A DNA stretch of 45,143 nt from NCBI GenBank assembly GCA_041499865.1, contig JBGQLA010000001.1, forward strand, positions 1-45,143, read 5' to 3'. This DNA comes from Deltaproteobacteria bacterium (GTDB lineage: Bacteria; Myxococcota; Myxococcia; Myxococcales; 40CM-4-68-19). Shown piece by piece: positions 3,696 through 33,123 of this stretch (position 1 is its first letter; each line of letters opens with the position of its first letter). A program made the position numbers and the translations under genes. The notes beneath the pieces were generated by a model. That model worked only from the letters and a program-made list of their open reading frames with translations. It ran no database searches and had not been told where the DNA came from.

Positions 3696-3726
3696 AGGAT
3701 CGCGCCGGACGACTGGCGGCGTTGTC

Positions 3727-4580
3727 CTAAAAGAGGTTCGATCCTTGCACCACGAAAAACGCATCCGAGAACACTGCGGCATGAGTGCCCGGCGCATTCT
3801 GTACGCCGGAGATCGCGACTCGATTGTGGTCGCCGACGCTCACGGAAATAGCCTCGTTCCCTCGGTCGGCGGGCCCTGCAGGAAGCACGATGCGCTTCTC
3901 GACATCGCCGTGTGAGTCGAGCACCAGCGCCAGCGGATCCCTCGCGTCGCTGACGCTCAGCCCAGCCGGGTTTTGCGTGTAGTTGGTGAACCCACCGCCA
4001 ACAGCCTTCCATCGCCCAAGGCCGCAACGTCCCAGAACATGTCGCCGCTCTGGACGTCGACGTTGCGTTCATGGTTGACCTGACCGGTGTCTGCCTGCGC
4101 CGACAGGATCCAGCCATCCCAGCTTCCGGGCTGAGCGCCGGTCTTGATGCGCCCGACGAGAGTGATCGAGTCGTCCGCGATCCGCATGTTGAGCAGGCGC
4201 TTGTTCCTGCCTGTAGTTCCCATCAACCTGGCGGCGGTCGGGAAGCCCTGCGGGGCGATCTTCGTCACGATCGCGGTACCGAAATCGAAGTTCGCCGGAT
4301 CAGCCTGCGACATCAGGTCGTCGCCGAAGAAGGCGTCATGGCTGGGGAGCACGTCCGCCGTGCTGGCCACGCTCACATACAGGTTTTCCTCTCCGTCCAC
4401 GTCGGCATACACAAAGGAAGCGCTGTCTCCCTGGTGAAAGTTGTCGAAGCCTCCCCCGATGATCCCGAGAAACAGCAGAGGCGCTGCCGCTTCCACCCAG
4501 GTGGCCCACTTCTGCTCCCAACTCCCTCCGGAGAGTGCGAGCCGGTAAGCCTGCACGGAGTTGTTCGCCCAGCGGACCAC
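3727..4580 (-). pseudogene. beta-propeller/delta-60-repeat-like protein, apparently frameshifted
   Basis: ORFs 3957..4580 and 3727..3924 (both minus) read as one protein after a 1-nt shift near 3985-4000: ...AALGDGRLLAVG|GFTNYTQNPAGLSVSDARDPLALVLDSHGDVEKRIVL... The unit DGRLLAVGGFTN resembles delta-60-type repeats. No signal peptide and no convincing N-terminus (GTG 4580). Confidence 0.4.
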
Positions 4581-4613
4581 CGCAAAGAGGTCAACTCCGG
4601 CCTGGGGGACTGT

Positions 4614-9671: not shown

Positions 9672-9697
9672 GGCGGGATTTTGCGATCAGTAGCGTC

Positions 9698-11301: not shown

Positions 11302-12792
11302 ATGTGGCCGCGGCTTCTGCTGCTCCTCGCGATCTCGCTCGCACCCGCGCCGCGCGCGGCTGCGGCCGATGATCCGACCCGCCGGCAGTTCGATCCGGAT
11401 CCGGCGAGGCTGGCTCTCTCGCTCGACGGCGGTTTCACCACCGAGACCGCCGCCGCCGCGCCCCGGGGCGCATTCCGATTCGGCTCGGTCTTCGACGTCG
11501 CGGGCGGCCTGCTCGTGCTCGAGCAGGGCAGTCAACGTTCGGACCTGCTCGTATCCCGCGGCCTGCTCCATCTTCTCGGCGGCTGGTCGCTGGGCCGGGT
11601 GGAGTTTGCGGCCCACCTCCCCATCGCCCTCTGGCAGAACAGCGACTTCTCGCTCCTGACCTCGCAGGGCGTTACGGGACCGCTGGTCGATCCGATCGCA
11701 TCGACGACGCCCGGCGACCTGCGCCTCGGCGCCAAGGTTCCCATCCTCGACGCGGTCAGCTGGCCGGTCGGTCTCGCCGCGCTCGTCGACTTGCGCCTGC
11801 CCACCGGAAATGCCCAGGCGTTCATGAGCGACGGGCTCGCTCTGGTCCCCTCGCTGGTAGTGACGAGAACGTTCGGGCGCGTCCGCGTCGACGGCCAGAT
11901 TGGCTACCAGGTCCGGAGACAAGGCCAGTACGCGCAGCTGGTGGTTCACGACGGCCTCGTCTATGCGCTGGGCGGTTCGCTCGACCTCCCCAAGGTCGCG
12001 GCATTCAAGCGCTGGAAGGCCATCGCCGAGATCAACGGCGGCTGGCCGCGTGGCGAAGACCTCTCGACCGACCGGTATCGCGCGCCGCTGTCGGCGCGTG
12101 CGGGAGTGCGGGCGTTCCTTTCTTCGCGGCTCTCGGTGGAGGCGGGCGCCGGCACGGGCATCGGGCCGGCCGGCTACGGCCATGAGCGCTGGCGCGCCTT
12201 TTTCGGCGTCCGGTGGGGCAGCGCTCCGGCAGCCGCGCAGGTCGGACCGCTCATGGATCGCGACGGCGACGGCGTGCCGGACAACGAGGACCTCTGCCCG
12301 GACGAGCCGGGACCAGCCGAGCTGGACGGCTGCCCCGACACTGACGGCGACGGCATTCCCGACCGCGAGGACAAGTGCCCGAAACAACCGGGCCCGCCCG
12401 AGAACGACGGCTGCCCGCTGACGGGGGATGCCATCGAGGTTGGCTCGAGGCGCATCCTGCTCAAGGACTCGATCAACTTCGACACCGGCAAGGACACGAT
12501 CCAGAGCCGGTCCTTCCCGCTCCTGGACCAGGTGGCGAAGCTGCTCGAAGAGCATCCCGAGATGAAGCGCGTGCGCGTCGAGGGACATACCGACAACGTA
12601 GGGAATGCGGCCTACAACAAGGAACTCTCGGCGCGCCGGGCCGCCTCGGTCGTCCGCTACCTGGTCGGAAAGGGGGTGGCGCAGTCGCGACTGGTCCCAG
12701 CGGGGTACGGCTTCGAGCAACCCATCGCCTCCAACGCCACTGCGCTCGGCCGCGCCAAGAACCGACGCGTCGTATTCACCGTCCTCGAATAG
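11302..12792 (+). CDS. OmpA-family outer-membrane protein with thrombospondin type-3 repeats
   Basis: Signal peptide MWPRLLLLLAISLAPAPRAAAA. TSP3 repeats DRDGDGVPDNEDLCPDEPG...DTDGDGIPDREDKCP. OmpA_C domain FDTGKDTI...VEGHTDNVGNAAYNKELSARRAASV...NRRVVF. Confidence 0.9.
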   Translation: MWPRLLLLLAISLAPAPRAAAADDPTRRQFDPDPARLALSLDGGFTTETAAAAPRGAFRFGSVFDVAGGLLVLEQGSQRSDLLVSRGLLHLLGGWSLGRVEFAAHLPIALWQNSDFSLLTSQGVTGPLVDPIASTTPGDLRLGAKVPILDAVSWPVGLAALVDLRLPTGNAQAFMSDGLALVPSLVVTRTFGRVRVDGQIGYQVRRQGQYAQLVVHDGLVYALGGSLDLPKVAAFKRWKAIAEINGGWPRGEDLSTDRYRAPLSARAGVRAFLSSRLSVEAGAGTGIGPAGYGHERWRAFFGVRWGSAPAAAQVGPLMDRDGDGVPDNEDLCPDEPGPAELDGCPDTDGDGIPDREDKCPKQPGPPENDGCPLTGDAIEVGSRRILLKDSINFDTGKDTIQSRSFPLLDQVAKLLEEHPEMKRVRVEGHTDNVGNAAYNKELSARRAASVVRYLVGKGVAQSRLVPAGYGFEQPIASNATALGRAKNRRVVFTVLE

Positions 12793-12896
12793 GCAGCGGT
12801 CCTCCTCCTCAGGGGTTGCCAGAATCTCGCGATGGGCCCGGGACGGAGGTAAGACAGCAGCATGGCGCCCGTAGCCGCCAGTGGACCGATCGACTC

Positions 12897-14159
12897 ATGA
12901 TCCGGCGCCCCGAGCTTGCGCTCTCCCTGGTGCTGGCGGCCGCCTTGCCGGCCTGCTCCTGCGACACGGCGCCCGCGAATGCGCTGACGAGCTGCCAGGC
13001 GACGGAGGTCCTCCCCGCCTCGGTATCCACCGACATCCTCTTCGTCATCGACGACTCCGGCTCGATGAGCGAGGAACAGGCGAACCTCGCCGCCAACCTG
13101 GATGCCTTCATCGACACGCTGGTGGCGTCGCCGGTGAAGAACGACTTTCGCATCGGCGTCACCAACTCCTCGGTGGAGGAGTTCGCCGTGACCGCGACCA
13201 CAGGCAAGAGTTACCCGGCTGGCCCGTCTGCCGGCGTTCCCTATCCGGCTGGCGCGCTGGTAGCGATCAAGACGGACGGCAACGGCAACCCCATCCCCGG
13301 CGCGCTGGTCTACGACGCGTCCCTGTTCGCCCAGACCAGCGGCTGGGGCGGCAACCGCATCCTCGACAAGGGGTCGCTCACGCTGGCCGCCGACTTCAAG
13401 GTCAACGTGCGCATGGGGCTCAACGGAAGCGGGAAGGAGCAGCCGTTCCGCGCCGCCCGGCTGGCGCTCTCCGATCGCCTGCTCGACGCCAACGCCGGCT
13501 TTCTCCGCGACGGCGCCCGGCTGGCGATCGTCTTCCTCACCGACGAGGACGACTGCTCCGACTCGTCGGATCCGCGCGCCACCTCGAACAACCAGTGTCA
13601 CGACAAGGCGACCAAGAGCGCCAATCCGCCCATCCTCGACACGGTGGACGATTTCGCGAGCTTTCTCCTCGGCCCGGTGGGCGGCGAGCTGCGCGATGTC
13701 GCGGTCGGCGCGATCGGCGGCTTCGATCCCCTCACGCTGGCTCCCTCGTGCGGTGATGCCGCGATCTGCCAGGACACCGCGTGCGCCACCGCTTTCGACG
13801 AAGCCGATCGCTTTGCCGCACTCGCGACTGCGCTCGGGGGAACACGGATGCAGCTCGGCTCGATCTGCGACGCGAGCTTCCGCGACACCCTTGTCCGGTT
13901 CGCCGCGTCGCTGACACCTTCCACCATGCCTCTCGCCGGCGTGCCGGCCGACTGGCGGATGCTGGTGGTCACCGTCACCAAAGCGGGCGGCGGCGCAGTG
14001 CCGTGCAAGGTCGGGCTGGAGGGGGCGCCCGGGCAATCCACCGTCGATGCAGTCTATTCAGGCCCCAAGCTGGGCCGTCAGGCGCAGATCACGTTTCAGA
14101 ACGCGTGCAAGCTGGACCTGGGCGACAAGATCGACGTCCGCGTCGTCTGCGCCGGGTGA
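12897..14159 (+). CDS. VWA-domain lipoprotein
   Basis: ATG 12897 gives MIRRPELALSLVLAAALPAC (lipobox-like LPAC). MIDAS-type start ILFVIDDSGSMSEEQ, later IVFLTDEDDCSD. The ORF track start at 12375 lies inside the OmpA gene and is not credible. Confidence 0.8.
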   Translation: MIRRPELALSLVLAAALPACSCDTAPANALTSCQATEVLPASVSTDILFVIDDSGSMSEEQANLAANLDAFIDTLVASPVKNDFRIGVTNSSVEEFAVTATTGKSYPAGPSAGVPYPAGALVAIKTDGNGNPIPGALVYDASLFAQTSGWGGNRILDKGSLTLAADFKVNVRMGLNGSGKEQPFRAARLALSDRLLDANAGFLRDGARLAIVFLTDEDDCSDSSDPRATSNNQCHDKATKSANPPILDTVDDFASFLLGPVGGELRDVAVGAIGGFDPLTLAPSCGDAAICQDTACATAFDEADRFAALATALGGTRMQLGSICDASFRDTLVRFAASLTPSTMPLAGVPADWRMLVVTVTKAGGGAVPCKVGLEGAPGQSTVDAVYSGPKLGRQAQITFQNACKLDLGDKIDVRVVCAG

Positions 14160-14266
14160 GTGCAGGGGTTGGCTGGCTGCTTCTGCTGCGCCGCACGGAA
14201 CCGTCCTCTCGCGCTAGACCCGCCGGCGTGACAAAATCGCGGGCTTCCCAACAAAAGGAGAAAGTC

Positions 14267-15889
14267 ATGCGGTCCTTCCGTGGCAGGCACGTCCTGGCGG
14301 CCGCTCTCGCACTCGTGCCCGGTTGGGCGCTCGCACAGCACGATCATGCACACGAGGCGCCGGAGAAGTTCGGGCAGGTCCATTTCTCCACCTCGTGCAA
14401 TCCCCAGGTCCAGGCGACGTTCGAGGGCGCGCTGGCGATGTTGCATTCGTTCGCCTACGCCAAGGCGGCGAAGGCGTTCCAGGAGGTTTCAGCAAAGGAT
14501 CCTGGTTGCGGCCTCGCGCAATGGGGCCTCGCCATGACGTACCTGCACATCATCTGGGCGCCGCCCGCGGAAGAGGAATTCACCGCCGGGCGAACGGCGG
14601 CGCAGAAAGCGGCGGAGTTGGGAGCGCCGACCCCCCGTGAGCGCGACTACATCGCCGCAATCGGCGCGTACTACCAAGGCGACGGGGTGGCGCACCCGGT
14701 GCGCGTCGTCGCTTACGAAAAGGCCATGGCCGGCGTGGCGGAGCGCAACGCCACAGACGACGAGGCCGCAATCTTCCACGCCCTCGCAGTTCTCGGCGTG
14801 GCCTACAATTCGCCGCCCGACAAGACCTACGCGCGACAGAAGGAGGCGGCGAAGATCCTGAATCGCCTGCTGGCCGTCGAGCCCGACCATCCCGGGATCG
14901 CCCATTACATGATCCACTCCTTCGACTACCCGGAGCTGGCCCAGCTGGCGTTGCCCGCGGCGCGCGCCTACGCGAAGATTGCTCCTGCGGCGCCGCACGC
15001 GCTGCACATGCCCTCCCACATCTTCACCCGGCTGGGAATGTGGACGGAGTCGATCGAATCGAATCTCGCCTCGGCGCGCACGGCCCAGGCGGGACTCGCC
15101 AAGACCCACCCCGGAGCGACGGCATTCGACGCGCTGCACGCGATGGACTACCTGGAGTACGCGTATCTGCAGAGTGGACAGGATGCCAAGGCGCAAGCCG
15201 TGGCCGACGACGCCGCCAAGGTCACCAGCCTGGACATTCCGCAGTTCGCCGCGGCGTATGCGCTGGCCGCCATCCCGGCCCGCCACGCACTCGAGCTCCG
15301 CGCCTGGAAAGACGCGGCGGCGGTGAAGCTTGCGGCGACGATTCCCTGGGCGAAGTATCCCTACGCCGAGGCGATCGTTCATTTCGCCCGGTCCGTCGGC
15401 AGCGCTCGCGCCGGCGATTTGGAAACGGCGCGCCAGGAGCTGGCGACGCTGGCCGGGATCCAGGCCTCGCTGAAAGGCCAGAAGGGGTTCGACTGGGCGA
15501 CACAGGTCGAAGTCCAGCGCCGCGCAGCGGCGGGATGGCTGGCGCGCGCCGAGAAGAAGGACGCCGAAGCGGTGGCGCTGATGCGCTCGGCGGCAGACCT
15601 CGAGGACGCGACGGACAAGCATCCGGTCACGCCCGGATCGATCCTTCCGGCACGCGAGCAGCTGGCTGATCTGCTCGCCGAGCTGGGGCAGCCGGCGGCG
15701 GCGCTCGCCGAATACCAGGCCTCGCTGCACTCGACTCCGGCACGTCTCAACAGCTACGGCGGCGCCGCGCAGGCGGCGGAGCGCGCCGGGAAGAAGCAGG
15801 AGGCGAAGGCCTTCCGCGCGCAGCTGGTCGCGCTGTGCGGCGGCTCGGTGCCCACCCGCGCCGGGGCAGCAATGGCTGTTGCGGAGTAA
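14267..15889 (+). CDS. secreted helical-repeat (TPR-like) protein of unknown function
   Basis: AAGGAG 7 nt upstream of ATG 14267. Signal peptide MRSFRGRHVLAAALALVPGWALA. Conserved blocks HFSTSC, LHSFAY, DPGCGLAQWGLAM, HYMIHSFDYPELA, APHALHMPSHIFTRLGMW. I recall this as a widespread uncharacterised family. Confidence 0.7.
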   Translation: MRSFRGRHVLAAALALVPGWALAQHDHAHEAPEKFGQVHFSTSCNPQVQATFEGALAMLHSFAYAKAAKAFQEVSAKDPGCGLAQWGLAMTYLHIIWAPPAEEEFTAGRTAAQKAAELGAPTPRERDYIAAIGAYYQGDGVAHPVRVVAYEKAMAGVAERNATDDEAAIFHALAVLGVAYNSPPDKTYARQKEAAKILNRLLAVEPDHPGIAHYMIHSFDYPELAQLALPAARAYAKIAPAAPHALHMPSHIFTRLGMWTESIESNLASARTAQAGLAKTHPGATAFDALHAMDYLEYAYLQSGQDAKAQAVADDAAKVTSLDIPQFAAAYALAAIPARHALELRAWKDAAAVKLAATIPWAKYPYAEAIVHFARSVGSARAGDLETARQELATLAGIQASLKGQKGFDWATQVEVQRRAAAGWLARAEKKDAEAVALMRSAADLEDATDKHPVTPGSILPAREQLADLLAELGQPAAALAEYQASLHSTPARLNSYGGAAQAAERAGKKQEAKAFRAQLVALCGGSVPTRAGAAMAVAE

Positions 15890-23018: not shown

Positions 23019-23780
23019 ATGACACCGAACTCTCCATCGTCACGCGGCAGGATGGGCCGCAGCCGCCTGGGCGGCGTCGCCACCGCGCTAGCGCCGGCGC
23101 AAGGGTCCGCGCCGCGGCAGCTCGCCCTCGGCATCCCCTCCCCGGCCCGTGTCCACGAAGTCCTTCTGCCGGGCGCCGTGAAGATCCCCGGCTGGCTCAG
23201 CCATGATGCGCAGCGATCGCTCGCCGCCGGGTTCCGCCAGTGGGCTTTGCCGCCGGCCGGGCTCCGGCACCCGCGGGTCCCGAGCGGACATCTGATGAGC
23301 GTCCAGTCGGTGTGCCTGGGGTGGCACTGGGAGCCGTACACGTATTCGAGGACGGCCGACGACACCGACGGCGCGCCGGTCAAGCCGTTGCCTGTCGAGC
23401 TCGCCGATCTGGCCCGGGCTGCCGTCGCGGAAGCTTACGGACCGAACTGCGCAGCCTCCTACGCACCGGACGCGGCGATCGTGAACCTCTACGCTTCGGG
23501 AGCGCACCTCGGGCTGCATCTCGACGGCGAGGAGCCCAGCGACGCTCCGGTCGTCACCCTCAGCCTCGGCGACAGCTGCGTGTTCCGGTTTGCGGGCGTC
23601 GGCCGGCGCAATGGCCCCTTCACCGACGTCGAGCTCCGCTCCGGCGATCTGCTGGTCTTCGGCGGGCCGAGCCGGCGCATCTATCACGGCGTCCCCGAGG
23701 TGCTCGAGGGGACGGCGCCGGAAGACCTCGGCCTTCCCCCGGGCAGGGTGAGCATCACTCTGCGGGAGACCGGACTGTGA
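23019..23780 (+). CDS. alkB: alpha-ketoglutarate/Fe(II)-dependent dioxygenase AlkB (alkylated DNA repair)
   Basis: 253 aa: LPGAVKIPGWLS, AAIVNLYASGAHLGLHLDGEE (HxD), LLVFGGPSRRIYHGV (distal His), RVSITLRE (Arg pair). The start is uncertain between ATG 23019 and ATG 23052. Confidence 0.85.
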   Translation: MTPNSPSSRGRMGRSRLGGVATALAPAQGSAPRQLALGIPSPARVHEVLLPGAVKIPGWLSHDAQRSLAAGFRQWALPPAGLRHPRVPSGHLMSVQSVCLGWHWEPYTYSRTADDTDGAPVKPLPVELADLARAAVAEAYGPNCAASYAPDAAIVNLYASGAHLGLHLDGEEPSDAPVVTLSLGDSCVFRFAGVGRRNGPFTDVELRSGDLLVFGGPSRRIYHGVPEVLEGTAPEDLGLPPGRVSITLRETGL

Positions 23781-24538
23781 AGGGCGCCGTTTGCGCGCTG
23801 CCGCATTCCGGGCGCCAAGGAGCCGCGGCGTTGCCAGTTGCAGCGCGCGTGGCGGGACTGGACTGGACCGCGATCTCCCGAGGCCTCGACGACCTTGGTT
23901 CGTCACTCACGGGTCCCGTCCTGGGGCCGCCGGAGTGCAAGGGGATCGCGGAGCTCTACGGCGACGATCTCCATTTTCGCTCGACCATCGACATGGCCCG
24001 CTACCGGTTCGGACAGGGCCAGTACCGCTACTTCGACCGACCGCTGCCGAGGCTGGTCGCGGAGCTGCGGGCCGCGTTCTGGCCGCATCTCTTGCCGATC
24101 GCCAGGGCGTGGGCGGGACGCCTGGGGCAGCCTGCGCCATGGCCGGACAGCCTCGACGACTGGCTCGAGCAGTGCCACGAAGCAGGTCAGACCCGGCCTA
24201 CGCCGCTCTTGCTTCGCTACGGGCCGGGCGACTGGAACGCCTTGCACCGCGACCTCTACGGCGAGCTCGTGTTCCCGCTGCAGGTCGTCATCGGCCTCGA
24301 CCGGCCGGGTGTGGACTACACGGGCGGAGAGTTCATCACGCTCGAGCAGCGGCCCCGCGCCCAGTCTCGCGGGACCACGAGCGCCATCGCCCAAGGTCAG
24401 GGCCTTGTCTTCACCACGCGGGACCGGCCGGTGCCGTCGCGCCGGGGCTGGTCCGCAGCGCCGATGCGCCACGGAGTCAGCGTGCTGCGCTCCGGCCGCC
24501 GTCACACTCTCGGCCTCGTCTTCCACGACGCCCGATGA
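23777..24538 (+). CDS. 2OG-Fe(II) oxygenase family protein (second oxygenase of the repair operon)
   Basis: GTG 23777 overlaps the alkB stop (GTGA), with GGGAGA 7 nt upstream. FGQGQYRYFDRPLP, TPLLLRYGPGDWNALHRDLYG (HxD), GGEFITLEQRPRAQSRG, MRHGVSVLRSGRRHTLGLVFHDA. Alternative in-frame start GTG 23849. Confidence 0.7.
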   Translation: MKGAVCALPHSGRQGAAALPVAARVAGLDWTAISRGLDDLGSSLTGPVLGPPECKGIAELYGDDLHFRSTIDMARYRFGQGQYRYFDRPLPRLVAELRAAFWPHLLPIARAWAGRLGQPAPWPDSLDDWLEQCHEAGQTRPTPLLLRYGPGDWNALHRDLYGELVFPLQVVIGLDRPGVDYTGGEFITLEQRPRAQSRGTTSAIAQGQGLVFTTRDRPVPSRRGWSAAPMRHGVSVLRSGRRHTLGLVFHDAR

Positions 24539-25020
24539 CCGCACCGCGGCAGCGGGGGGCGCGACCGTTCGAGGAGATCGTCGCCGAGCACGGCGCCCTG
24601 GTGATGCGCGTGTGCCGGGCGCTGGTGGGGCCCGCGGACGCCGCCGACGCCTGGTCGGAGACGTTCCTGTCCGCCCTGCAGGCGTATCCAAGGCTGCCAG
24701 CGGGCAGCAACATCCGGGGGTGGCTCGTCACCATCGCCCATCGGAAGGCGATCGATCAGCTCCGGGGCGCCGCGCGAAGGGCGCGCGAGGTGCCCGAGCT
24801 GGCCGTCCCCGAGCCGGCCTCGGCGGATGACGGCGAGCTCCGCGCCGCTCTGGACGCCCTGCCGCCCAAGCAGCGCGGCGCAGTGATCTACCGGTATCTC
24901 GCCGAGCTCTCGTACGCCGAGGTCGGCGAGATCCTGGGTTCCAACGCCACCGCTGCCCGGCGAAGCGCGGCGGATGGCATCGCGAGCCTTCGCAAGCGTC
25001 TTTCGAAAGGAACGTCATGA
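24535..25020 (+). CDS. ECF-type (sigma2+sigma4) sigma-70 family RNA polymerase sigma factor
   Basis: ATG 24535 overlaps the upstream stop (ATGA). 161 aa: region 2 VMRVCRALVG...AWSETFL...RGWLVTIAHRKAIDQLR, region 4 LPPKQRGAVIYRYLAELSYAEVGEILGSNATAARRSAADGIASLRKRL. Confidence 0.85.
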   Translation: MTAPRQRGARPFEEIVAEHGALVMRVCRALVGPADAADAWSETFLSALQAYPRLPAGSNIRGWLVTIAHRKAIDQLRGAARRAREVPELAVPEPASADDGELRAALDALPPKQRGAVIYRYLAELSYAEVGEILGSNATAARRSAADGIASLRKRLSKGTS

Positions 25021-25640
25021 CCACCGACAAGCAGATCATCGATCGCCTCGAGCAGGGATTTTCCGGCTCCTCCGCCGCATTCGATACCGACGGCAGGCTG
25101 CGCGGCCGGCTCGCCGCGCTGGCGGAGCGGCAAGGACTCCTCGACGTGTCGTACCGCACCATCGACAGCCCGCTCGGGCCGCTGCTCCTGGCAGCGACCG
25201 GGAAGGGCCTGGTGCGGGTGGCGTTCAGCCGGGAAGATCATCAGTCGGTCCTTTCCCGCCTCGCGAGCGACATCAGCCCGCGGATCCTCCGCACGCCCCG
25301 GCGGCTCGACAAGGCGGCGCGCCAACTCGAGGAGTACTTCACCGGCAAGCGACGCGCGTTCACCGTGCCGGTCGATCTGCGGCTCGCCCAGGGGTTCCGT
25401 CGCTCGGTGCTCCTGCACCTGCGCGACATTCCTTACGGCGAGACGCAGAGCTACACCGCCCTGGCGAAGGCCGCGGGCAATCCGTCCGCAGTCCGGGCGG
25501 CCGCCAGCGCGTGCTCGCACAATCCGCTGCCACTGGTCGTGCCCTGCCATCGCGTCGTGCGCAGCGATGGCAGCTTTGGCGAGTACCTCGGCGGCCCCAA
25601 GGCCAAGCACGCCTTGCTCGCGATGGAGGCGGCGGGGTGA
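25017..25640 (+). CDS. ogt: methylated-DNA--protein-cysteine methyltransferase (Ogt/MGMT) with ~45-aa N-terminal extension
   Basis: ATG 25017 overlaps the sigma stop (ATGA). 207 aa: IPYGETQSYTALA...NPLPLVVPCHRVVRSDGSFGEYLGG contains the PCHR active site. The usual N-terminal domain (SPLGPLLLAATGKGLVRVAF) is preceded by extra residues MTTDKQIIDRLEQGFSGSSAAFDTDGRLRGRLAALAERQGL. Confidence 0.9.
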   Translation: MTTDKQIIDRLEQGFSGSSAAFDTDGRLRGRLAALAERQGLLDVSYRTIDSPLGPLLLAATGKGLVRVAFSREDHQSVLSRLASDISPRILRTPRRLDKAARQLEEYFTGKRRAFTVPVDLRLAQGFRRSVLLHLRDIPYGETQSYTALAKAAGNPSAVRAAASACSHNPLPLVVPCHRVVRSDGSFGEYLGGPKAKHALLAMEAAG

Positions 25641-25842
25641 GATGGCGGCTCGCGAGGGAGAGGGACTCGACGCGGCCCGCCTCTGCGGCCCACCTCGACG
25701 CTGACGCCCGGAGCGCCGTCGCGCAGCCGCTCCAGGGCGGAGGCGCGACATCGACGGCTGTCTACCCTCCAGATGGGGGATGCCGGCCCCGATCGCGTGT
25801 GTTACTTGATCGAATCATGCCGCACCGAACTGGACCGATGCA

Positions 25843-28635
25843 GTGCGCTTCCTGACGTGTCAGGGCCTCGCCCCCGGCGACCTCGCCGACAAGGTGGAGA
25901 AAGTCCGCGCCGCGATCGAGCGCGACGATTTCCGCTCCGCGGATGTGAAGAAGCTGGCCGTCCGGGGCTTCTATCGGGCGAAGCTCGACGATGCCTGCCG
26001 GCTCCTGCTCGTCTTCGCCGATTACCGGGGCGGGAAAGCATGCCTCGCGCTGGAGATCATCCGGGGCCACGCCTATGACCGCTCGCGCTTTCTGCGCGGC
26101 GCACCGGTCGACGAATCGAAGCTGGGCGATCCCGGTCCACCGGAGCCGCCGGACGCGCAGCCCCTGCGCTACCTGCACCCGGAACGGCCGGTGTTTCACT
26201 ATCTCGACAAGCCCCTGTCCTTCGACGACCTGCAGGACGCGGCGCTGCGCCAGCGGCTTCCTCTCGTGCTGGTGGGCTCGGCCGGGAGCGGGAAGACCGC
26301 CCTGCTCTTGCAGCGGCTGCGGGGCATCGCCGGCCGGGTGGCCTACGTCACGGAATCGAGATGGCTCGCCGAGACCTCGCGCGCTCTCTACGTGGCCTGC
26401 GAGGGCGCGCCCGAGGATCAAGAGGCCGACTTCCTCAGCTACCGGCAGCTGCTGGAAACCGTCGGAGTCCCCGCCGGCCGGCCCGTGTCCTTCCGCGACT
26501 TCACCGGCTTCTTCGCCCGCCACCGGCAGGCCATCCGATTCGCGGACGCCCACCAGGTCTACGAGGAGCTGCGCGGCGTTCTCACCGCCGAGCCCGAGGG
26601 GCCGCTCCCGCGCGAAGCGTATCTCGGCCTGGGCGTGCGCCAGTCGATGTTCGACTCCGGGCAGCGCGCGATGATCTTCGCGCTCTTCGAGCGCTACCGC
26701 GCCTGGCTCGGGGCAGAGAACCTGTACGATCCAAACCTGGTCGCCCACGCCTGGCTGCCGAGGATGGAACCGACGTACGACTTCGTCGCGGTGGACGAGG
26801 TGCAGGATCTGTCGAACGTCCAGCTCGCGTTGATCCTGAAATCCCTGAAGGCCCCTGGCCAGTTCATCATCGCCGGGGACGCCAACCAGATCGTGCACCC
26901 CAATTTCTTCTCCTGGTCGAGGGTGAAGAGCCTCTTCTGGCGCGGGCTGGGGGAAGCGCAAAAGACGGACGTCCACCTGCTCGACGTCAGCTACCGCAAC
27001 AGCGACGAGGTCACGCGCGCGGCAAACGGCGTCCTCCGCCTCAAGCACGCGAAGTTCGGATCGATCGACCGGGAGTCGAATCTTCTGATGCGGCCGCTGG
27101 CGGGCATCGCGGGCTCGGTCACCGCCATCGGCGCCGGGAGCGCGGCCGTCCGCGAGCTGGACGAGAAGACGCGGCAGTCCACGAAGGCCGCGGTGATCGT
27201 CCTGCGCGACGAGCACAAGGCCGAGGCGCGGCAGCGCTTCCGCACGCCGCTGGTGTTCAGCATCCACGAGGCCAAGGGGCTCGAGTACGAGACGGTGATC
27301 GTGCACCGCCTGATCTCCGCCGAGCGCCGCATGTTCGCGGAGCTGTGCGAAGGCGTGACGGCCGGCGATCTCGCGCGGGACGAGCTCGAGTACCGGCGGG
27401 CAAAGGACAAGAGCGACCGATCGCTGGAGCTGTACAAGTTCTTCGTCAACGCGCTCTACGTGGCGCTCACGCGCGCGGTGCGGCAGGTGGTGCTGGTGGA
27501 GGACGATCCCGGCCATCCACTCCTGGAATTGCTCGGCATCGGGCGCGCCGACAACGGCTCGGTGCAAATGGAGAAGTCCTCGGCCGAGGAATGGCAGCGG
27601 GAGGCGCACCGGCTGGAGGCGCAGGGAAAGACCGAGCAGGCCGAGGCGATCCGCGCGGAAGTGCTGCGGCTGCGGCCCGTTCCCTGGCAGGTGTTCGACC
27701 GCGCGAATCTGCAGGCGCTGGCGGCGAAGGCGCTCGCGCCCGGCAGCGTATCTGCCAAGGCGAAGCAGCAGCTCTTCGAGCTGGCGTGCTTCCATGAGGA
27801 GAGACTGGTGGCGGAGCGCCTGGCGGAGGAAGCGCGCTTCGAGCCGGCGGCGCAGTATGACGCGCAGCGCGAGCGGATCGCCCGGCGCGCGCTCGACGGA
27901 TTCGAGGGCAAGAACTTCAAGGAGGTGCTCGCCCGGACGGAGCACCATGGCGTCGATTACCGGAGTCCGCAGAACCTCACTCCGCTGATGCTCGCGGCGT
28001 TCGCCGGCAACGTGGCGCTCGTCGAAGCGCTGCTGGCGCGCGGAGCGAGCCTGGAAGCGCGCGACCATGCGGGGCGCACGGCGCTTCACTGGGCGATCCG
28101 CCACGCCTATCGCGACCCTGCGTTCGCCGCGAACGCGTTCGGCACCGTCTTCGATCTGGTCGCTCCTCCATCGTTCGACGTGGAGGCCTCGGGACGGCTG
28201 CTGCAGATCGGGCGGGAGATGGGCGAGTATTTCTTCTTCTCCACCCTGATCGCCCGGTTCGACGAGCTCTACCGCTGGCGCAGGGGCCGGTTCAGCGCGG
28301 TGACGAGCCAGTTCTTCCTTCGCCAGCCTTTCGAGCATTTCCCGGAGGTGGTGATCAAGGCGGCCCGGAAGCGGCGCACCTACGTCAACGGGCTCCTTGC
28401 CCGCAACGAGCCGGGCAGCGCTTACGTGCCAAATCGCCAACTCTGGGTGCGCGAGTCGTTCGGCCACTACGTGCCAAACCCCGCGCTCAGCCTGCGGGTG
28501 GCCGGTGCGGACGGCGCGGATGCGTGGGTGCCGCTGCACGAGGTGATGGACCTCGCCTGGCTCGAATCGCACTTCGAGGTCGGAGCGAGAGGGCGGCTCA
28601 CCGGCGGGAGAGTGGATGTGGCGGCCACGGGATAA
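25843..28635 (+). CDS. multidomain SF1 (UvrD-like) helicase: RelE/ParE-like N-terminal domain + helicase core + helical/TPR-like linker + ankyrin repeats + unknown C-terminal domain
   Basis: 930-aa ORF (GTG 25843; alternative GTG 25894). Walker A GSAGSGKT (26275-26298), VDEVQD (26791-26808), IAGDANQIVHP, SYRNSDEV, IHEAKGLEYETVIV, LYVALTRA. Ankyrin TPLMLAAFAGNVALVEALLARGASLEARDHAGRTALHWAIRHA (~27979-28110). N-terminus DVKKLAVRGFYRAKLDDACRLLLVF...LALEIIRGHAYD. Confidence 0.8.
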   Translation: MRFLTCQGLAPGDLADKVEKVRAAIERDDFRSADVKKLAVRGFYRAKLDDACRLLLVFADYRGGKACLALEIIRGHAYDRSRFLRGAPVDESKLGDPGPPEPPDAQPLRYLHPERPVFHYLDKPLSFDDLQDAALRQRLPLVLVGSAGSGKTALLLQRLRGIAGRVAYVTESRWLAETSRALYVACEGAPEDQEADFLSYRQLLETVGVPAGRPVSFRDFTGFFARHRQAIRFADAHQVYEELRGVLTAEPEGPLPREAYLGLGVRQSMFDSGQRAMIFALFERYRAWLGAENLYDPNLVAHAWLPRMEPTYDFVAVDEVQDLSNVQLALILKSLKAPGQFIIAGDANQIVHPNFFSWSRVKSLFWRGLGEAQKTDVHLLDVSYRNSDEVTRAANGVLRLKHAKFGSIDRESNLLMRPLAGIAGSVTAIGAGSAAVRELDEKTRQSTKAAVIVLRDEHKAEARQRFRTPLVFSIHEAKGLEYETVIVHRLISAERRMFAELCEGVTAGDLARDELEYRRAKDKSDRSLELYKFFVNALYVALTRAVRQVVLVEDDPGHPLLELLGIGRADNGSVQMEKSSAEEWQREAHRLEAQGKTEQAEAIRAEVLRLRPVPWQVFDRANLQALAAKALAPGSVSAKAKQQLFELACFHEERLVAERLAEEARFEPAAQYDAQRERIARRALDGFEGKNFKEVLARTEHHGVDYRSPQNLTPLMLAAFAGNVALVEALLARGASLEARDHAGRTALHWAIRHAYRDPAFAANAFGTVFDLVAPPSFDVEASGRLLQIGREMGEYFFFSTLIARFDELYRWRRGRFSAVTSQFFLRQPFEHFPEVVIKAARKRRTYVNGLLARNEPGSAYVPNRQLWVRESFGHYVPNPALSLRVAGADGADAWVPLHEVMDLAWLESHFEVGARGRLTGGRVDVAATG

Positions 28636-28653
28636 TCGGCGCTTCTTGATCCG

Positions 28654-28860
28654 GTGTACGATGGGGAAGTGGATCCCCTGCGGCGGGACGACATCGAGCA
28701 GGCCCGTCGAGCGACCCCGGAGGAGAAGGCACGCCAGGCGCTGGAGATGATGCGCGCTGCCGTCCGTTTGAAGCGTGCGGGACTTCGCGCGCGCCATCCG
28801 GACGAGTCGGAGGCCGAGATCGATCGCCGCGTGCGCGACTGGCTGCTCGCCGATGACTGA
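28654..28860 (+). CDS. small helical protein of unknown function (possible antitoxin-like partner of the downstream nucleotidyltransferase)
   Basis: 68-aa ORF (GTG), 18 nt after the helicase stop. It overlaps the next gene by 8 nt (ATGACTGA). Sequence ...TPEEKARQALEMMRAAVRLKRAGLRARHPDESEAEIDRRVRDWLLADD. No SD seen and no family recognised. Confidence 0.45.
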   Translation: MYDGEVDPLRRDDIEQARRATPEEKARQALEMMRAAVRLKRAGLRARHPDESEAEIDRRVRDWLLADD

Positions 28861-29448
28861 TCCGCGTCCGGAAGACGCGCTGGCACATGCCGCGGCCGAA
28901 CTGCGCAGTCGCGGCAAGCGCTTCGCGCTCGTGGGCGGCCTCGCCATTTCGGTGCGTGGCGAGGTCCGGGCGACGCGTGACGTCGACCTGGCCGTGGCGG
29001 TCGGCGACGATTTGGAGCTCGAGACGCTCGTCGCCGATCTGGCGCAAGCGGGATATCGGCCGGTCGCGACTGTCGAGCAGGAAGCGCGCAGGCGGTTTGC
29101 CGTCGTGCGCCCGAATCGCCCATCGGATACCGCGTCGATTTGCTCGCCGCGACCTGTGGGATCGAGGCGGAGATCGTCGCCGCGGCGACGCCGGTTCAGT
29201 TCGAGGGCGCCGGCGCCATGCCGGTCGCGATTGCGGAGGATCTGCTCGCGATGAAGCTCCCTGCCGCGCGAGAAGGGCGGGCGCGCGATTGGGATGACGC
29301 GGTCGGCCTGCTGCAGGTCAATCCGGACCTCGACCTTGCGCTCGTCAGGGAGCGCCTGGCGCTGATCACGGGCCGCGGTTTCGCCCGGAACGAAGACTTG
29401 CCCTCGAAGCTCGACGCGCTCCTCGCACGGCGGGACGCCTCGACCTGA
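28853..29448 (+). pseudogene. nucleotidyltransferase-fold protein (AbiEii/DUF2204-like), interrupted by an apparent 1-nt frameshift
   Basis: Frame 1 from ATG 28853: RFALVGGLAISVRGEVRATRDVDLAV... (GG..R.T.D.D NTase signature) up to ...RRRFAVVR. The sense continues in another frame from ~29110: ESPIGYRVDLLAATCGIEAEIV...AIAEDLLAMKL...DWDDAVGLL, to the stop at 29448. The shift falls in the C-run 29108-29113. Confidence 0.6.
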
Positions 29449-29575
29449 CACGCGCCTCGCCACTGCCGGCCAGAGCGCCTGGCCGAGACCTCGCGCGCGC
29501 GAGCAGCTCTTCCAGCGTCCGCGTCGCCACCGCCTCCCGCGACGCGAACTGCGCCGCGAGGTTCAGGCGAAGGGC

Positions 29576-30483
29576 TCAAGCGAGATCAACTGGCGCGTAC
29601 GAAAAGGGATACCTGGGCATCGATGACCGGGAATTCTCACCGACCGCGGCGGCGAGGTCCGCGAGCTTCACCTCGACGCCGAGGCGCGAGCGCTTCTTGC
29701 ACCAGTCAGGAACGCGGACGACGATGCCCGCTGCCTCGAACGCGGGCACCTCGCGCAGGAAGCGGAGCGCCTCGGCGGGTGTCCAGGCCAGCGTGCGGAA
29801 CAACTTCCCGTCATCGACCAGTTCCTTCACCAGCGCGCTCGCCTCCGCAGCGCGCTGCACGGGCAGCAGAAGGGAGAGGAGAGCGCCCTTGTCGGAGGCG
29901 AAGTCGCGCAGGGCCTGGCCGAGCGGCCGGTGCTGCGGCTGGGCCTTGCTCGACAGGCGCGTCGTGTAGGTGGCGAGAAACGCGAAGGGCCGTTCCTCGT
30001 CGGCCTTGTTCTCGGCGAGATGGAAGCAGACGCGACCGACTACGTTCCAGGCGGCGTGACGGTCCTTGAACCACTGCTCCAGGGAGGTATCCCGCAGCTC
30101 GCTGCGCAGGGCGGCGTGCAGGTCGCTCCAGAGCGCCTCGAGCGTCGCCGGGAGCAGGTATTCGCCGCCGCACATCGGCGGCGCCTGCGAGACGAGCCGA
30201 GCGAACTCGTGAAGTGGCGCCTGATCGCCGGCGGCCTCTGGAGCCGCGCAGGCGCGGGCGAGAAAGAGCGCGCCCACATCGCGGAAGAAGGCCACGCTCG
30301 GCGGCAACGTCTCGCCGGGGTGGCGCGCCGCGAGCTGAAGGACGGCGAAGCCAGGGCGAGGTCGGAGGTGAGCTCGCCCGCCAGCGCGGCCGGCACGCTG
30401 CCTTCGAGTGAAGGCCTCGCGTCGAGGTGCACTGCGCCCGAGGGCGAGATCGCGAGCGCGAGCGGGATCAGATCTTCGGCCAC
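29576..30483 (-). pseudogene. N-terminal stub of a bacterial SNF2-family helicase (SNF2-associated region only), frameshifted and 3'-truncated
   Basis: GTG 30483 MAEDLIPLALAISPSGAVHLDA...SDLALA, then a shift near 30348-30360 into GFAVLQLAARHPGETLPPSVAFFRDVG...PPMCGGEYLLPATLEALW...AWNVVGRVCFHLAENKADEERPFAFLATYTTRLS...PLGQALRDFA...LLLPVQRAAE...WTPAEALRFLREVPAFEAAGIVVRVPDW. Homology ends around 29660, with a stop at 29576. No ATPase domain follows. Confidence 0.6.
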
Positions 30484-30510
30484 CGGACTCGCTTATCATC
30501 GGCCCCCGAC

Positions 30511-31164
30511 ATGAAGGAACTGGTCGTCATCTCTCCGCTGAGCGATTGGACCTGCCGCGAGTGCCAGGGGAGCGGAGATCTGTTGGTGATGGAGGGGCCA
30601 GGACCGCTCTGCCTCGCCTGCGCGGACCTGGACCACCTCGTCTTCCTTCGCCGTGGCGACGCCGCGCTCACGCGCCGGGCCAAGGCGGCGAGCAAGCTTC
30701 GCGCGGTGGTGATCCGCTTCAGCCGATCGCGCAAGCGATACGAGCGGCAGGGTCTTCTGGTCGAGGAGCATGCGCTGAGGAAAGCGGAGTCGGAATGCCT
30801 GGCGGACGCCGAGGTGCGGGCGCGGCGCAAGGCGCGCGATGCTGAACGCCGGGCCAACCAGGACGAGGCGCTGGCGCGGTTGATGGCGGACGGGATCCGG
30901 AAGCTCTTTCCGCGCTGCCCGGCGAAAGAGGCGGAGGCCATCGCGCGGCATGCGACGCTGCGGAGAAGCGGCCGCATCGGAAGGAGTGCGGCGGCGAAGG
31001 AGATGGAAGAGCGCCCCTTGGTCCTCGCGGTCATTGCCGCCGTCCGTCACGGGTACACGCGATATGACGATCTGTTGATGAGCGGATTGGAGCGGAGCGA
31101 AGCGCGCGCGGCGGTGCGCGGCGAGGTAGATCGAATCCTTGCCGACTGGCGCGGCGCAGGCTGA
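30511..31164 (+). CDS. DUF2293 domain-containing protein with N-terminal CxxC...CxxC zinc ribbon
   Basis: ATG 30511, 217 aa: WTCRECQG...LCLACADLDH, then ...VIAAVRHGYTRYDDLLMSGLERSEARAAVRGEVDRILADW, the conserved DUF2293 C-terminal block as I recall it. Confidence 0.7.
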   Translation: MKELVVISPLSDWTCRECQGSGDLLVMEGPGPLCLACADLDHLVFLRRGDAALTRRAKAASKLRAVVIRFSRSRKRYERQGLLVEEHALRKAESECLADAEVRARRKARDAERRANQDEALARLMADGIRKLFPRCPAKEAEAIARHATLRRSGRIGRSAAAKEMEERPLVLAVIAAVRHGYTRYDDLLMSGLERSEARAAVRGEVDRILADWRGAG

Positions 31165-31476
31165 AGCGCGCGGGCGAGGCGGCGCGGCATCGGTCCACCT
31201 GGCCCCGCCGAGCGTCGAGCAATGGACCCGCGGTGGAAAAGCCACTGGCGTTTCACGCAAGCGCGTCTAGGGTCGCGCCAAGTGCGCTGGCGGTTTTCTA
31301 CGCGGAAGAGAAGCATGGACACGATCCGGATCGGAACATCGGCCGCGGCGTTGCTGCCGACGGCCCCGGTGCGTGCGGCGGTGTGCGCCGATCGCCAGAG
31401 CCGTGCTGCAGTGGCGCTCGATCAATCGCAGTCCCTGCGTTGAGACTGCGGGTGCACGAGGGCGGGAGATCAGGTG

Positions 31477-32907
31477 ATGCAGAGTCCGGAACCCAAGAAG
31501 CCCCAGGAAGCGAAACGACCAATCACTGAAACCAGCCTGGCGCGGTTTGGCCTGGCCCTGGCAACCTGGAGTGAGCGCTGGTTCCCGGAACCGCTGGTCT
31601 TTGCCCTGGCGGGAGTCGTCATCGTATTCATCTTCGGACTCTTGCTTCGCCAGTCGCCCAGCACACTCGCCATCCAGGGCGGCAAGAACTTCTGGACGCT
31701 GGTCCCATTCACCATGCAGATGGTGATGATCATCATTGGCGGCTACGTGGTGGCAAGCACGCCGGTCTTGCGCCGCTTGATTCAGCGCCTGGCGATGATC
31801 CCGAAGAACGGGCGAACCGCTGTCGCGGTGATCGCCCTCTTCTCCGTGTTGACGTCATTGATCTCCTGGGGCCTGAGCCTGATCTTCAGCGGATTGCTAG
31901 CCCGGGAGATGGCTCGCCGCGTGAAGGGCATGGACTACCGCGCCGCCGGCGGGGCCGCTTATCTCGGCCTCGGTGCGGTCTGGGCCCTGGGTCTTTCTTC
32001 GTCCGCGGCCATGATGATGGCCACGAAGGGCGCCATCCCTCCCTCGTTGTTTGCCATCAGCGGAGTGATCCCCCTCAAGCAAACCCTCTTCCTCTGGCAG
32101 AGCCTGGTCACTGCCTTGGTGCTGGTCGTGGTCTCGGTGGTCCTCGCCTATGCCTCGGCTCCTACTGCAGAGAATGCAAAGACCGCCGAAGACTACGGCA
32201 TCGAGTTCGAATCCACCGAGCGCAAGCTCGAACCGAGAACCCGGCCCGGAGAATGGCTGGAGTACAGCCCGCTGCTGACCGTGTTGGTGGCAGCTCTCCT
32301 GCTTTGGTATTTGTTTGATTTCTTCCGCACCTCCCCTCAAGGTGCGCTGGCGGCACTGGATCTGAACACGTACAACTTGCTGTTCATCGCCGTCGGCCTG
32401 CTCTTGCACTGGCGGCCCAGGAGTTTCGTAAAAGCGGTTGCGGAGTGCATTCCGGCAACGGGGGGCGTGCTCATCCAGTTCCCGTTCTATGCCGTCATCT
32501 TCGGCATGATCGTGGGAACGGGCATGTCCGACTGGCTGGCCAACGTGTTCGCAAAGGTGACCACGCAGGGGACGTATCCGCTGCTGGTGGCGGTGTATTC
32601 GGCGCTCATCGGAGTCTTTGTGCCCTCGGGCGGAAGCAAATGGGTCATCGAGGCTCCGTATATCCTCCAGGCGGCCAACCTGCACCACGTGCACCTGGGC
32701 TGGGTGGTGCAGATCTACAACGCCTCCGAGGCACTGCCGAACTTTGTGAATCCCTTCTGGATGCTGCCGCTCCTGGGAATCCTGGGGCTCAGAGCAAAAG
32801 ATATCGTCGGCTACGGTGTGCTGCAGATGATCGTGCATCTACCCATCGTGCTTTTCCTCTGCTGGTTCTTCGCAAGGTACATTCCTTACGTGCCTCCAAT
32901 GAAGTAG
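31477..32907 (+). CDS. atoE: short-chain fatty acid transporter (AtoE family)
   Basis: About 476 aa, polytopic. LARFGLALATWSERWFPEPLVFAL, FWTLVPFTMQMVMIIIGGY, GGSKWVIEAPYI are typical AtoE blocks. ATG 31477 (GGGAG 8 nt upstream); GTG 31474 is also possible. Noticeably lower GC than its neighbours. Confidence 0.85.
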   Translation: MQSPEPKKPQEAKRPITETSLARFGLALATWSERWFPEPLVFALAGVVIVFIFGLLLRQSPSTLAIQGGKNFWTLVPFTMQMVMIIIGGYVVASTPVLRRLIQRLAMIPKNGRTAVAVIALFSVLTSLISWGLSLIFSGLLAREMARRVKGMDYRAAGGAAYLGLGAVWALGLSSSAAMMMATKGAIPPSLFAISGVIPLKQTLFLWQSLVTALVLVVVSVVLAYASAPTAENAKTAEDYGIEFESTERKLEPRTRPGEWLEYSPLLTVLVAALLLWYLFDFFRTSPQGALAALDLNTYNLLFIAVGLLLHWRPRSFVKAVAECIPATGGVLIQFPFYAVIFGMIVGTGMSDWLANVFAKVTTQGTYPLLVAVYSALIGVFVPSGGSKWVIEAPYILQAANLHHVHLGWVVQIYNASEALPNFVNPFWMLPLLGILGLRAKDIVGYGVLQMIVHLPIVLFLCWFFARYIPYVPPMK

Positions 32908-33123
32908 TCGGGACGTTGGATGCAAGCTGGCGAGCGGCCTCCCCGCTTCTGCTCGAGCGGGCGCCCACATTACTTGAGCTACTGCCCAGCCAGATTCGCC
33001 TGATGTGCAGGAGATCGACCGCCTGCGCCCTCGGACTCGGCCCACGCAATCAACGTGCCGCGGCGCGCATTGACTTGGGAGCGCGACAAGGAGCCGTTTG
33101 CCGACCCGAAAGGGGGATTACGC

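Follow-up and report, generated by a model that had tools for sequence, protein, structure and literature searches.

A predicted RelE-fold, UvrD-like ankyrin-repeat protein and a decaying MenAT1-type toxin-antitoxin pair lie side by side on a Myxococcota-like contig

We analysed a stretch of 45,143 nucleotides from a soil Myxococcota-like bacterium (contig JBGQLA010000001.1, positions 1 to 45,143; hereafter the window, meaning the whole of this stretch), focusing on three adjacent genes of its forward strand. The first is an open reading frame (ORF) of 930 amino acids (aa) at 25843–28635, which the ORF table gives on the plus strand and which belongs to an uncharacterised and solitary family; for brevity we also call it the helicase. 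Its stop codon is separated by exactly 18 nt from the start of a 68-aa ORF (28654–28860, plus strand). The end of this small ORF overlaps the start of a nucleotidyltransferase (NTase) gene (28853–29448, plus strand) by 8 nt, which read ATGACTGA at 28853–28860. Both the spacing and the overlap agree with a preliminary description of the locus, made from the sequence alone, in which the three genes were put forward as one new multi-gene conflict or defence system. We concluded instead, with a probability of roughly 0.55, that the locus holds two independent genetic elements side by side: a toxin-antitoxin pair of characterised type, and a gene whose product matches no curated family.

The 930-aa protein is built of five parts in a fixed order, namely an N-domain of predicted RelE/YoeB fold, a divergent UvrD-like superfamily 1 (SF1) ATPase, a helical linker, ankyrin repeats, and a C-domain. 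Pfam searches detected UvrD-helicase, UvrD_C_2, AAA_19, Viral_helicase1, and Ank/Ank_2 (the last two at residues 697–756), and found nothing for residues 1–135 or 757–930. The preliminary description had named a toxin-like N-terminal segment, a complete UvrD-type motif set, a helical linker, ankyrin repeats, and a C-terminus without a recognised motif, and this layout was borne out in each of its parts by the profile searches and structure predictions reported below.

Residues 1–95 (25843–26127, plus strand) were assigned to a RelE/YoeB/ParE-fold domain by AlphaFold2 (AF2) modelling followed by Foldseek. The model of residues 1–135 had a pLDDT of ~90 over residues 1–90, and its elements followed the order beta-alpha-beta-beta-beta (E2–6, H12–26, E43–47, E52–61, and E64–74). 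When this model was compared with the PDB, the top ~35 matches were nearly all RelE/ParE/YoeB/YafQ/HigB-type toxins or RelE-domain fusions. The best of them were 6n90 (YoeB/ParE), 3oei_K (RelK), and 7v6w and 2a6r (both YoeB), with a probability of ~1 and TM values of at most 0.66; YafQ, HigB, ParE2, and Cami1 (8phj) were also matched. By predicted structure, then, the N-domain has a RelE-superfamily fold. Residues K37, Y44, R45, R53, E71, H76, Y78, S81, and R82 were invariant among family members down to 40% identity, the Shigella protein included, and K37, R45, R53, E71, H76, and Y78 sit on or just after the predicted beta-sheet. The catalytic residues of YoeB and RelE are also found on or just after the beta-sheet. 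Reading the sequences by eye, we saw a parallel between 'YRAKL...RLLL...H-x-Y' in the family, 'YKIKL...YRLVY' in RelE, and '...RLVY...HY' in YoeB, a resemblance with no statistical support. The dN/dS ratio of the N-domain was 0.11–0.19.

The ATPase/helicase core occupies residues 120–570 (26200–27552, plus strand), as defined by Pfam and by the SF1 motifs. All six motifs quoted in the preliminary description were present: GSAGSGKT at residues 145–152, VDEVQD at 317–322, IAGDANQIVHP at 343–353, SYRNSDEV at 383–390, IHEAKGLEYETVIV at 474–487, and LYVALTRA at 538–545. The SF1 Q motif and motifs I, II, III, IV, V, and VI were all found, and every motif residue was invariant in the family, again to 40% identity. 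Motifs IV and V are separated by a short insert of ~90 aa, and the 2B domain is thus reduced. When the full-length alignment was used for a PDB profile search, DARPins and ankyrins dominated the results, and the search was repeated with the core alone; the nearest PDB sequences were then UvrD and UvrD1, at only E ~5e-4 over ~95 residues. The NCBIfam equivalogs for UvrD, Rep, PcrA, RecB, HelD, and helicase IV scored 14–30 bits versus cut-offs of 419–1144. Assignment to a characterised repair helicase family by profile searches had been named as grounds for refutation, and these searches placed the 930-aa protein in none of them. Together, the PADLOC, NCBIfam, and PDB searches bore out the earlier view that the protein is neither Gabija nor Hachiman, and they also set it apart from the characterised repair helicases.

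The core is followed by a conserved helical linker (residues 571–690; 27553–27912, plus strand), which was recognised by its conserved columns and gave no significant Pfam match; its invariant residues include W584, E592, G595, Q599, R604, P614, and W615. Next come two to three ankyrin repeats (residues 691–760; 27913–28122, plus strand), for which Pfam Ank, Ank_2, Ank_4, and Ank_3 all scored above cut-off. Over residues 697–756, Ank reached 33.8 bits (cut-off 21.1) and Ank_2 reached 36 bits (cut-off 27.3), and the region had strong PDB ankyrin/DARPin matches. Residues 761–915 (28123–28587, plus strand) form, in the AF2 model, a family-specific alpha/beta C-domain. The model of residues 757–930 had a pLDDT of 89 and a pTM of 0.83. 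Foldseek gave it no match in the PDB or BFVD (best probability at most 0.28, mostly below 0.15), and no Pfam match or PDB sequence match was found for this domain. The structural comparison proposed for the two ends of the protein therefore succeeded at one of them, yielding a RelE fold for residues 1–90 and no Foldseek relative for the C-domain. A C-domain profile run against 1.84e9 representative proteins gave 655 matches (clusters at 50% identity), and all ten of the ten that we inspected had the helicase-ANK-C-domain architecture or were fragments of it. A few family members (P0168, P0177, and P0259) carry an extra C-terminal ankyrin block, or DUF1186 with a SEC-C zinc motif. These additions suggest that the C-terminus is a variable, possibly target-recognising end of the protein. 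Pairwise dN/dS for the whole protein versus four relatives was 0.15–0.20, and each of the five segments gave 0.09–0.29 versus the same four; all of its domains are under purifying selection.

The 68-aa ORF and the NTase gene are a MenA1/MenT1 (Rv0078B/Rv0078A) toxin-antitoxin module. The product of the 68-aa ORF is a MenA1-type antitoxin that matched Pfam PF18993, 'Rv0078B-related antitoxin', at 3e-11; a phmmer comparison with the PDB MenA1 gave no match, and the Pfam profile alone detects the relationship. The second gene encodes a MenT1-type (DUF1814/AbiEii) NTase toxin and is a pseudogene in the window, where its reading frame is broken in two (28775/28853–29254 and 29140–29448). Its identity was established through intact orthologues. 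The N-terminal piece in the window matched Pfam AbiEii weakly (4e-4), and the intact 198-aa orthologues in two related loci, L001 and L089, matched it at 7e-11. The L001 NTase also matched PDB 8an4/8an5 at 1.6e-31 over residues 7–190 (184 residues). The depositors' name for the 8an4 molecule is 'Bacterial toxin / AbiEii/AbiGii toxin family protein', and we take it to be MenT1/Rv0078A of Mycobacterium tuberculosis. In the alignment of the L001 protein with 8an4, the T-R-D, K, and D positions equivalent to MenT1 T39/D41/K137/D152 were kept. The preliminary description had set the locus apart from AbiE by composition. This was correct in that AbiEi is missing, but the NTase itself belongs to the AbiEii superfamily and is paired here with a MenA1-type antitoxin.

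In M. tuberculosis, rv0078B encodes MenA1, a 68-aa antitoxin located upstream of menT1, and rv0078A encodes MenT1, a DUF1814 NTase that adds CMP to tRNA 3' ends. A single MenA1 blocks two MenT1 protomers, and MenAT1 is a complete two-gene toxin-antitoxin system whose toxin stops translation (Xu et al. 2023, PMC10435456). In the window's lineage, the MenA1-like protein would likewise block the MenT1-like nucleotidyltransferase, and modification of tRNA 3' ends by this enzyme is assumed from the M. tuberculosis homologue.

That the NTase frame is broken had been recognised before, and DNA alignment with L001 and L089 traced the break to a 1-nt deletion in the window between 29111 and 29112 (CGCC-CGAA in the window versus CGCCTCGAA). 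The catalytic NTase motifs are preserved on either side of the frameshift. The deletion is also present in L088 (position 8266), a JGI contig 99.96% identical to the window, and its recurrence has to be read knowing that the two may derive from the same data. In L089, a 99.6% identical contig from another sample, menT1 is intact at 198 aa (position 3707), and the same is true of L001. Most simply, the frameshift is a real allele that is polymorphic in the population. The MenAT1 copy in the window is decaying, with the toxin gene inactivated and the antitoxin frame alone intact. Versus L001, dN/dS was 0.10 for MenA1 and 0.22 for MenT1 (comparing L089 or the window), and both genes are under purifying selection.

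We looked for genes that accompany the helicase in a neighbourhood sample made up of 80 genome loci together with seven additional metagenome lineages at 68–81% identity. A tblastn search of the genome loci with the window's neighbours recovered the 68-aa ORF and the NTase at only one of the 80, and this was L001, the 91%-identical sister of the window. The pair occurred in none of the seven metagenome lineages. Co-occurrence of the pair with helicase homologues, which the preliminary description had proposed as a check, was thus limited to that single locus, and its proposal of one new three-gene system did not hold, since at 79 of 80 loci and in all seven lineages the helicase homologue has neither the small ORF nor the NTase beside it. 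This absence argues that the 68-aa ORF/NTase pair and the helicase are independent of each other. Among the loci sampled, the adjacency of the two elements is confined to the window population and its sister, and it is a lineage-specific accident.

The same sample revealed no other companion of the helicase. All-versus-all clustering of flanking ORFs of at least 70 aa produced no family present at more than 7 of the 80 loci. Among ORFs of at least 25 aa within 500 nt of either end of the gene, there was no conserved small ORF at the 80 loci and no cognate antitoxin, and the 139 nearest neighbours matched 156 Pfam families, none of them more than three times. In the seven lineages the gene had various neighbours: a DUF6036 NTase, its 163-aa partner, and an integrase remnant; a pair of HigBA-like cassettes; HipA/HTH (HipBA-like) genes; an HNH gene; AAA_15-type ATPases; or purL/purQ. 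Toxin-antitoxin modules of several kinds gather beside the gene in other relatives, as they also do in mobile islands at large. PADLOC detected PDC-S24, PDC-S01, SoFic, Tmn, Csx16, and TnpB scattered among the nearest neighbours. AAA_15/SMC_N-type (OLD/GajA/PtuA-like) ATPases lie within ~3 kb of the helicase in L093 (1–515) and L094 (9684–10790), two loci at 68–74% identity, and are possible defence-island neighbours. We concluded that the 930-aa gene has no conserved partner gene.

The structure of the locus itself weighs against the independence of the two elements. The three genes are tightly spaced, with an 18-nt gap, an overlapping junction, and no terminator-like site. In addition, positions 25787–29453 are all that the window has in common with L001 (3.67 kb, 89.6% identity), a block that comprises exactly the three genes between unrelated flanks. 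The dS values versus L001 were similar for the three genes (0.29, 0.34, and 0.35). In the lineage of the window and L001 the three genes were probably inherited together, and perhaps moved together; locally they may be co-transcribed or may function together. These observations could be taken to mean that all three form one conflict system, in which the helicase is an added sensor or regulator of a MenAT-type pair, much as in DarHTG. The acquisition of helicases by toxin-antitoxin systems has precedent (PMC13069673), and near relatives of the helicase carry a different NTase two-gene module (DUF6036 with a 163-aa protein) 0.3–3.5 kb away. We consider a three-gene system improbable nonetheless. 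The pair is missing from nearly the whole of the sample, on plasmids and islands the helicase stands alone and is strongly conserved, M. tuberculosis MenAT1 is complete as two genes (PMC10435456), and in both the window and L088 the toxin is frameshifted and the helicase is intact. The DUF6036 modules, moreover, are convergent with the helicase or 3 kb away from it, and L083 and L086 have a common origin, which brings the independent NTase adjacencies down to two.

We rejected the DUF6036 modules as candidates for a MenT1-homologous partner, the only feature in common being the NTase GG...T/S-x-D-x-D motif. They represent one further ancestry, common to L083 and L086, and give no evidence of a conserved NTase partnership.

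The 930-aa gene, considered by itself, is a solitary, horizontally mobile accessory gene. A homology search with the protein gave more than 4500 matches, the best 120 of which were nearly all full-length (900–1040 aa) at 50–91% identity, and a scan of one genome per species found the family in at least 595 species. The taxa among the matches listed included Myxococcota, Acidobacteriota, many Beta- and Gammaproteobacteria (Azotobacter, Cupriavidus, Janthinobacterium, Paraburkholderia, and Accumulibacter among them), Alphaproteobacteria, and Chlorobi-type metagenome-assembled genomes. Full-length homologues span 40–91% identity and are conserved along their whole length. A search of 50,697 phage records found no homologue.

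Two relatives carry island-like repeats around the gene. L083, at 80% identity, contains a tRNA-Phe gene (2840–2915) and a perfect 47-nt direct repeat of its 3' half (10320–10366). The repeats bracket an island of ~7.45 kb that holds an XPB-like helicase with DUF790 (Bax1-like), the family gene, the DUF6036 NTase with its 163-aa partner, and an integrase remnant. In L087 the helicase lies between two 90%-identical Gp49/HTH (HigBA-like) cassettes (3693–4580 and 9153–10015), and a 90-nt repeat, related to the tRNA-Phe att fragment, comes after each cassette. The duplicated cassettes and att-like repeats of L087 suggest tandem island insertions. In the window, att-like or transposon-like repeats around 25787 and 29453 were chance-level matches only, and no tRNA was found.

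Plasmids are a second setting for the family. By tblastn, full-length relatives at 40–49% identity were located on 133 plasmids, of which 101 were from Shigella and 13 from Escherichia coli; other plasmid hosts included Piscirickettsia, Methylosinus OB3b, Deinococcus, Thermus aquaticus, and cyanobacteria. The Shigella flexneri orthologue on the virulence plasmid pINV (L081, 7938–10850) is full-length at 40% identity, and on the pINV plasmids of Shigella and enteroinvasive E. coli (EIEC), where examined, the gene adjoins shf-capU-virK-lpxM. The 1800 members of the pINV protein cluster go by no other names than 'hypothetical', 'ankyrin repeat', or 'UvrD-helicase domain-containing'. The family gene is present in 115 of 5426 (2%) complete E. 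coli genomes, and in 106 of these it is chromosomal. The two chromosomal copies that we inspected (L090 and L091, each at 12049–14898) are in CP4-like islands with AlpA, inovirus-Gp2-family, antirestriction, CbtA/YeeU, insertion sequence, and adhesin or contact-dependent inhibition neighbours. One E. coli copy has an internal stop. In its genomic behaviour, the gene is accessory, conflict-type cargo, in line with the conflict role put forward earlier.

What the 930-aa protein does was considered next to these results. Its ATPase motifs, its predicted RelE fold with an invariant cluster, its repeats, and its private C-domain suggest a self-contained sensor-motor-effector protein. In such a protein, the ankyrin repeats and C-domain would recognise a protein or complex, and the UvrD-like motor would contact nucleic acid and link activation to the hydrolysis of ATP. 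The N-domain effector would then cut RNA, possibly ribosome-bound mRNA, by means of the invariant R45/R53/E71/H76/Y78 cluster, and this cleavage would shut down translation. We tentatively favour, at rather less than even odds, a single-polypeptide conflict or defence protein in which a RelE-type RNase effector is gated by the motor and the ankyrin/C-domain. Precedents for a helicase combined with a toxin fold in defence are type II Gabija and DarHTG (PMC13069673), and Cami1 offers one for a RelE domain at work in a larger sensor. The broader proposition, that the family is an unrecognised, widespread single-protein immune or abortive-infection system in which a RelE/YoeB-type ribonuclease is licensed to cut mRNA, perhaps on the ribosome, by a UvrD-like motor with ankyrin repeats and a new-fold sensor domain, a prokaryotic counterpart of the Schlafen and RNase L design, is one that we regard as possible and somewhat doubtful.

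Several results count against a conflict protein with a RelE-type effector. None of 28 family N-domains had a Pfam RelE-type match at E of 10 or less, and hhalign of the N-domain with E. coli YoeB and RelE (the RelE query sequence having been checked against PDB 4fxe) gave a probability of ~0.1. A PDB profile search with the N-domain found nothing relevant. The RelE assignment thus comes from the predicted structure, and catalytic competence is putative. PADLOC, which had been recommended as a check on the locus, gave no named system and only partial, generic GajB-type helicase matches. Our literature search found no paper on the helicase family, and some of its genomic neighbours are plainly housekeeping genes (purL/purQ, citrate synthase, and pyruvate kinase).

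The lack of sequence-level support for RelE catalysis would suit a protein that serves the mobile element itself, through plasmid or island establishment, stabilisation, or anti-defence. The RelE fold would then be a non-catalytic module that binds RNA, ribosomes, or protein, and the ankyrin/C-domain would bind a host factor. Also consistent with this role is the presence of the gene on the 133 plasmids, intact in most pINV records among those listed; the copy on at least one S. dysenteriae pINV appears to be broken (2 pieces, H6). The E. coli island region likewise holds antirestriction, RadC, AlpA, and CbtA/YeeU genes. A role of this kind seems rather unlikely to us, given that the invariant R/R/E/H/Y cluster on the predicted RelE fold resembles an active site, that the gene is found also at chromosomal sites without visible mobile-element features, and that phage records yielded no match. 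A conflict or defence protein of sensor-motor-effector design remains the reading we prefer for the 930-aa gene.

If the protein does act in defence or addiction, it would add a RelE-based single-polypeptide design to those described, and would provide a function for a pINV gene annotated as 'hypothetical' or 'ankyrin repeat'. The toxin-antitoxin part of the locus is already known, and the helicase family matches no curated model. It is a large, conserved, unstudied family on mobile elements that combines a predicted toxin fold and a motor with a domain that has no structural relative in the PDB or in a viral library. Its members occur where experiments are feasible and the medical relevance is plain, on the Shigella/EIEC virulence plasmid and in islands of uropathogenic E. 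coli, and the Shigella and E. coli members make the RNase-effector hypothesis directly testable.

The surroundings of the three genes in the window were consistent with the preliminary description, which had placed the block between DNA-repair genes and an SNF2 remnant, after an AT-richer spacer. The leader of the 930-aa gene (25787–25842, plus strand) starts at the left edge of the L001-shared block, blastn homology between the window and L001 beginning at 25787. It is locally AT-richer, with a GC fraction of 0.55 at 25790–25840 (the 50 nt before the start codon) versus 69% in the gene. Searches of the leader and gene junctions of the window turned up neither a promoter (sigma-70 consensus included) nor a terminator, and no Rfam family or unusual RNA structure.

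Upstream on the plus strand (23019–25640) is an alkylation-repair-like string that encodes an AlkB-like 2OG oxygenase, a PF09859 oxygenase, an ECF sigma factor, and Ogt/MGMT. This string raised the question of whether the 930-aa protein could be a housekeeping helicase of DNA repair or RNA metabolism tied to the AlkB/Ogt genes. The helicase gene lies 202 nt downstream of ogt on the same strand, its product has the UvrD-type motif set, and every domain is under purifying selection. The AlkB/Ogt string is kept in L088 and is missing from every other helicase locus. Set against a repair role, tblastn found Ogt and AlkB at 0 of the 80 genome loci, not even at L001; the equivalog scores were far below their cut-offs, as given above; and the spread of the gene is patchy, with 2% of E. 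coli genomes carrying it and further copies on plasmids and islands. A repair helicase is thus largely refuted by distribution, and we hold this explanation to be highly improbable.

Downstream of the NTase, on the minus strand, is a 307-aa ORF (29576–30499) whose one Pfam domain is the SNF2-associated DUF3670; a helicase core is missing. It overlaps by ~70 nt the start of a divergent DUF2293 gene (30427–31164, plus strand). L002 and the window have in common the helicase and an inverted DUF2293/SNF2 block, and nothing else. The inversion of the DUF2293/SNF2 (DUF3670) pair relative to the helicase in L002 indicates that rearrangement has taken place downstream of the helicase. Elsewhere in the window, GC fractions of 0.57–0.61 were observed at 4001–6000 and 32001–33000, versus 0.64–0.73 across the rest. 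The second of these stretches coincides with a gene for an SCFA-transporter-like membrane protein (31474–32907).

Comparison with known systems separates the two elements clearly. The pair resembles MenAT1 of M. tuberculosis (PMC10435456) in having a 68-aa PF18993 antitoxin directly upstream of, and translationally coupled to, an NTase of ~198 aa from DUF1814/AbiEii, and the intact L001 NTase keeps the catalytic T-x-D, K, and D positions. It differs in that the toxin gene of the window is frameshifted and in that the host is a soil Myxococcota-like bacterium. With AbiE, the AbiEi/AbiEii type IV abortive-infection system, it shares a toxin of the same DUF1814/AbiEii family, whereas neither PADLOC nor Pfam detected an AbiEi antitoxin (COG5340, winged-helix), the antitoxin here being a short protein of MenA1 type.

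Among helicase systems, type II Gabija joins a GajB-like helicase to a MazF-like GajC, and DarHTG joins a helicase to a toxin (PMC13069673). Like these, the 930-aa protein combines a UvrD-like SF1 helicase, its 2B domain reduced or absent, with a toxin-fold effector. Unlike them, its predicted toxin fold is RelE/YoeB rather than MazF or DarT, and it is a one-polypeptide fusion with ankyrin repeats and a C-domain that has no conserved partner. The PADLOC GajB profiles matched part of the core (best 2e-9 over 80 residues), no GajA was found in the window flanks, and no partner was conserved at the 80 loci. UvrD, Rep, and PcrA share the full SF1 motif set with the core, and UvrD and UvrD1 are its nearest PDB sequences; similarity to these proteins and to GajB is nevertheless limited to the motif regions, and the N- and C-terminal appendages differ.

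The group III Schlafens (SLFN11/13/14) combine an RNA-cleaving effector with an SF1 helicase, RNase L combines an effector with ankyrin sensors, and both bring about antiviral shut-off of translation. A weak Pfam SLFN-g3_helicase match (E 0.005) was observed in the 930-aa protein, but the nuclease folds have nothing in common and homology was detectable in generic SF1 motifs only, so the likeness to Schlafens and RNase L is an analogy of design only. YoeB, RelK, YafQ, HigB, and ParE resemble the predicted fold of residues 1–90. The N-domain differs from the RelE/YoeB/ParE toxins in having neither sequence similarity to them nor a cognate antitoxin gene, and in being the N-terminus of a 930-aa ATPase. 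In this last respect the closest comparison is with Cami1 (CARF-RelE; 8phj), in which a RelE domain works inside a larger sensor protein, and which the predicted fold of the N-domain also matches.

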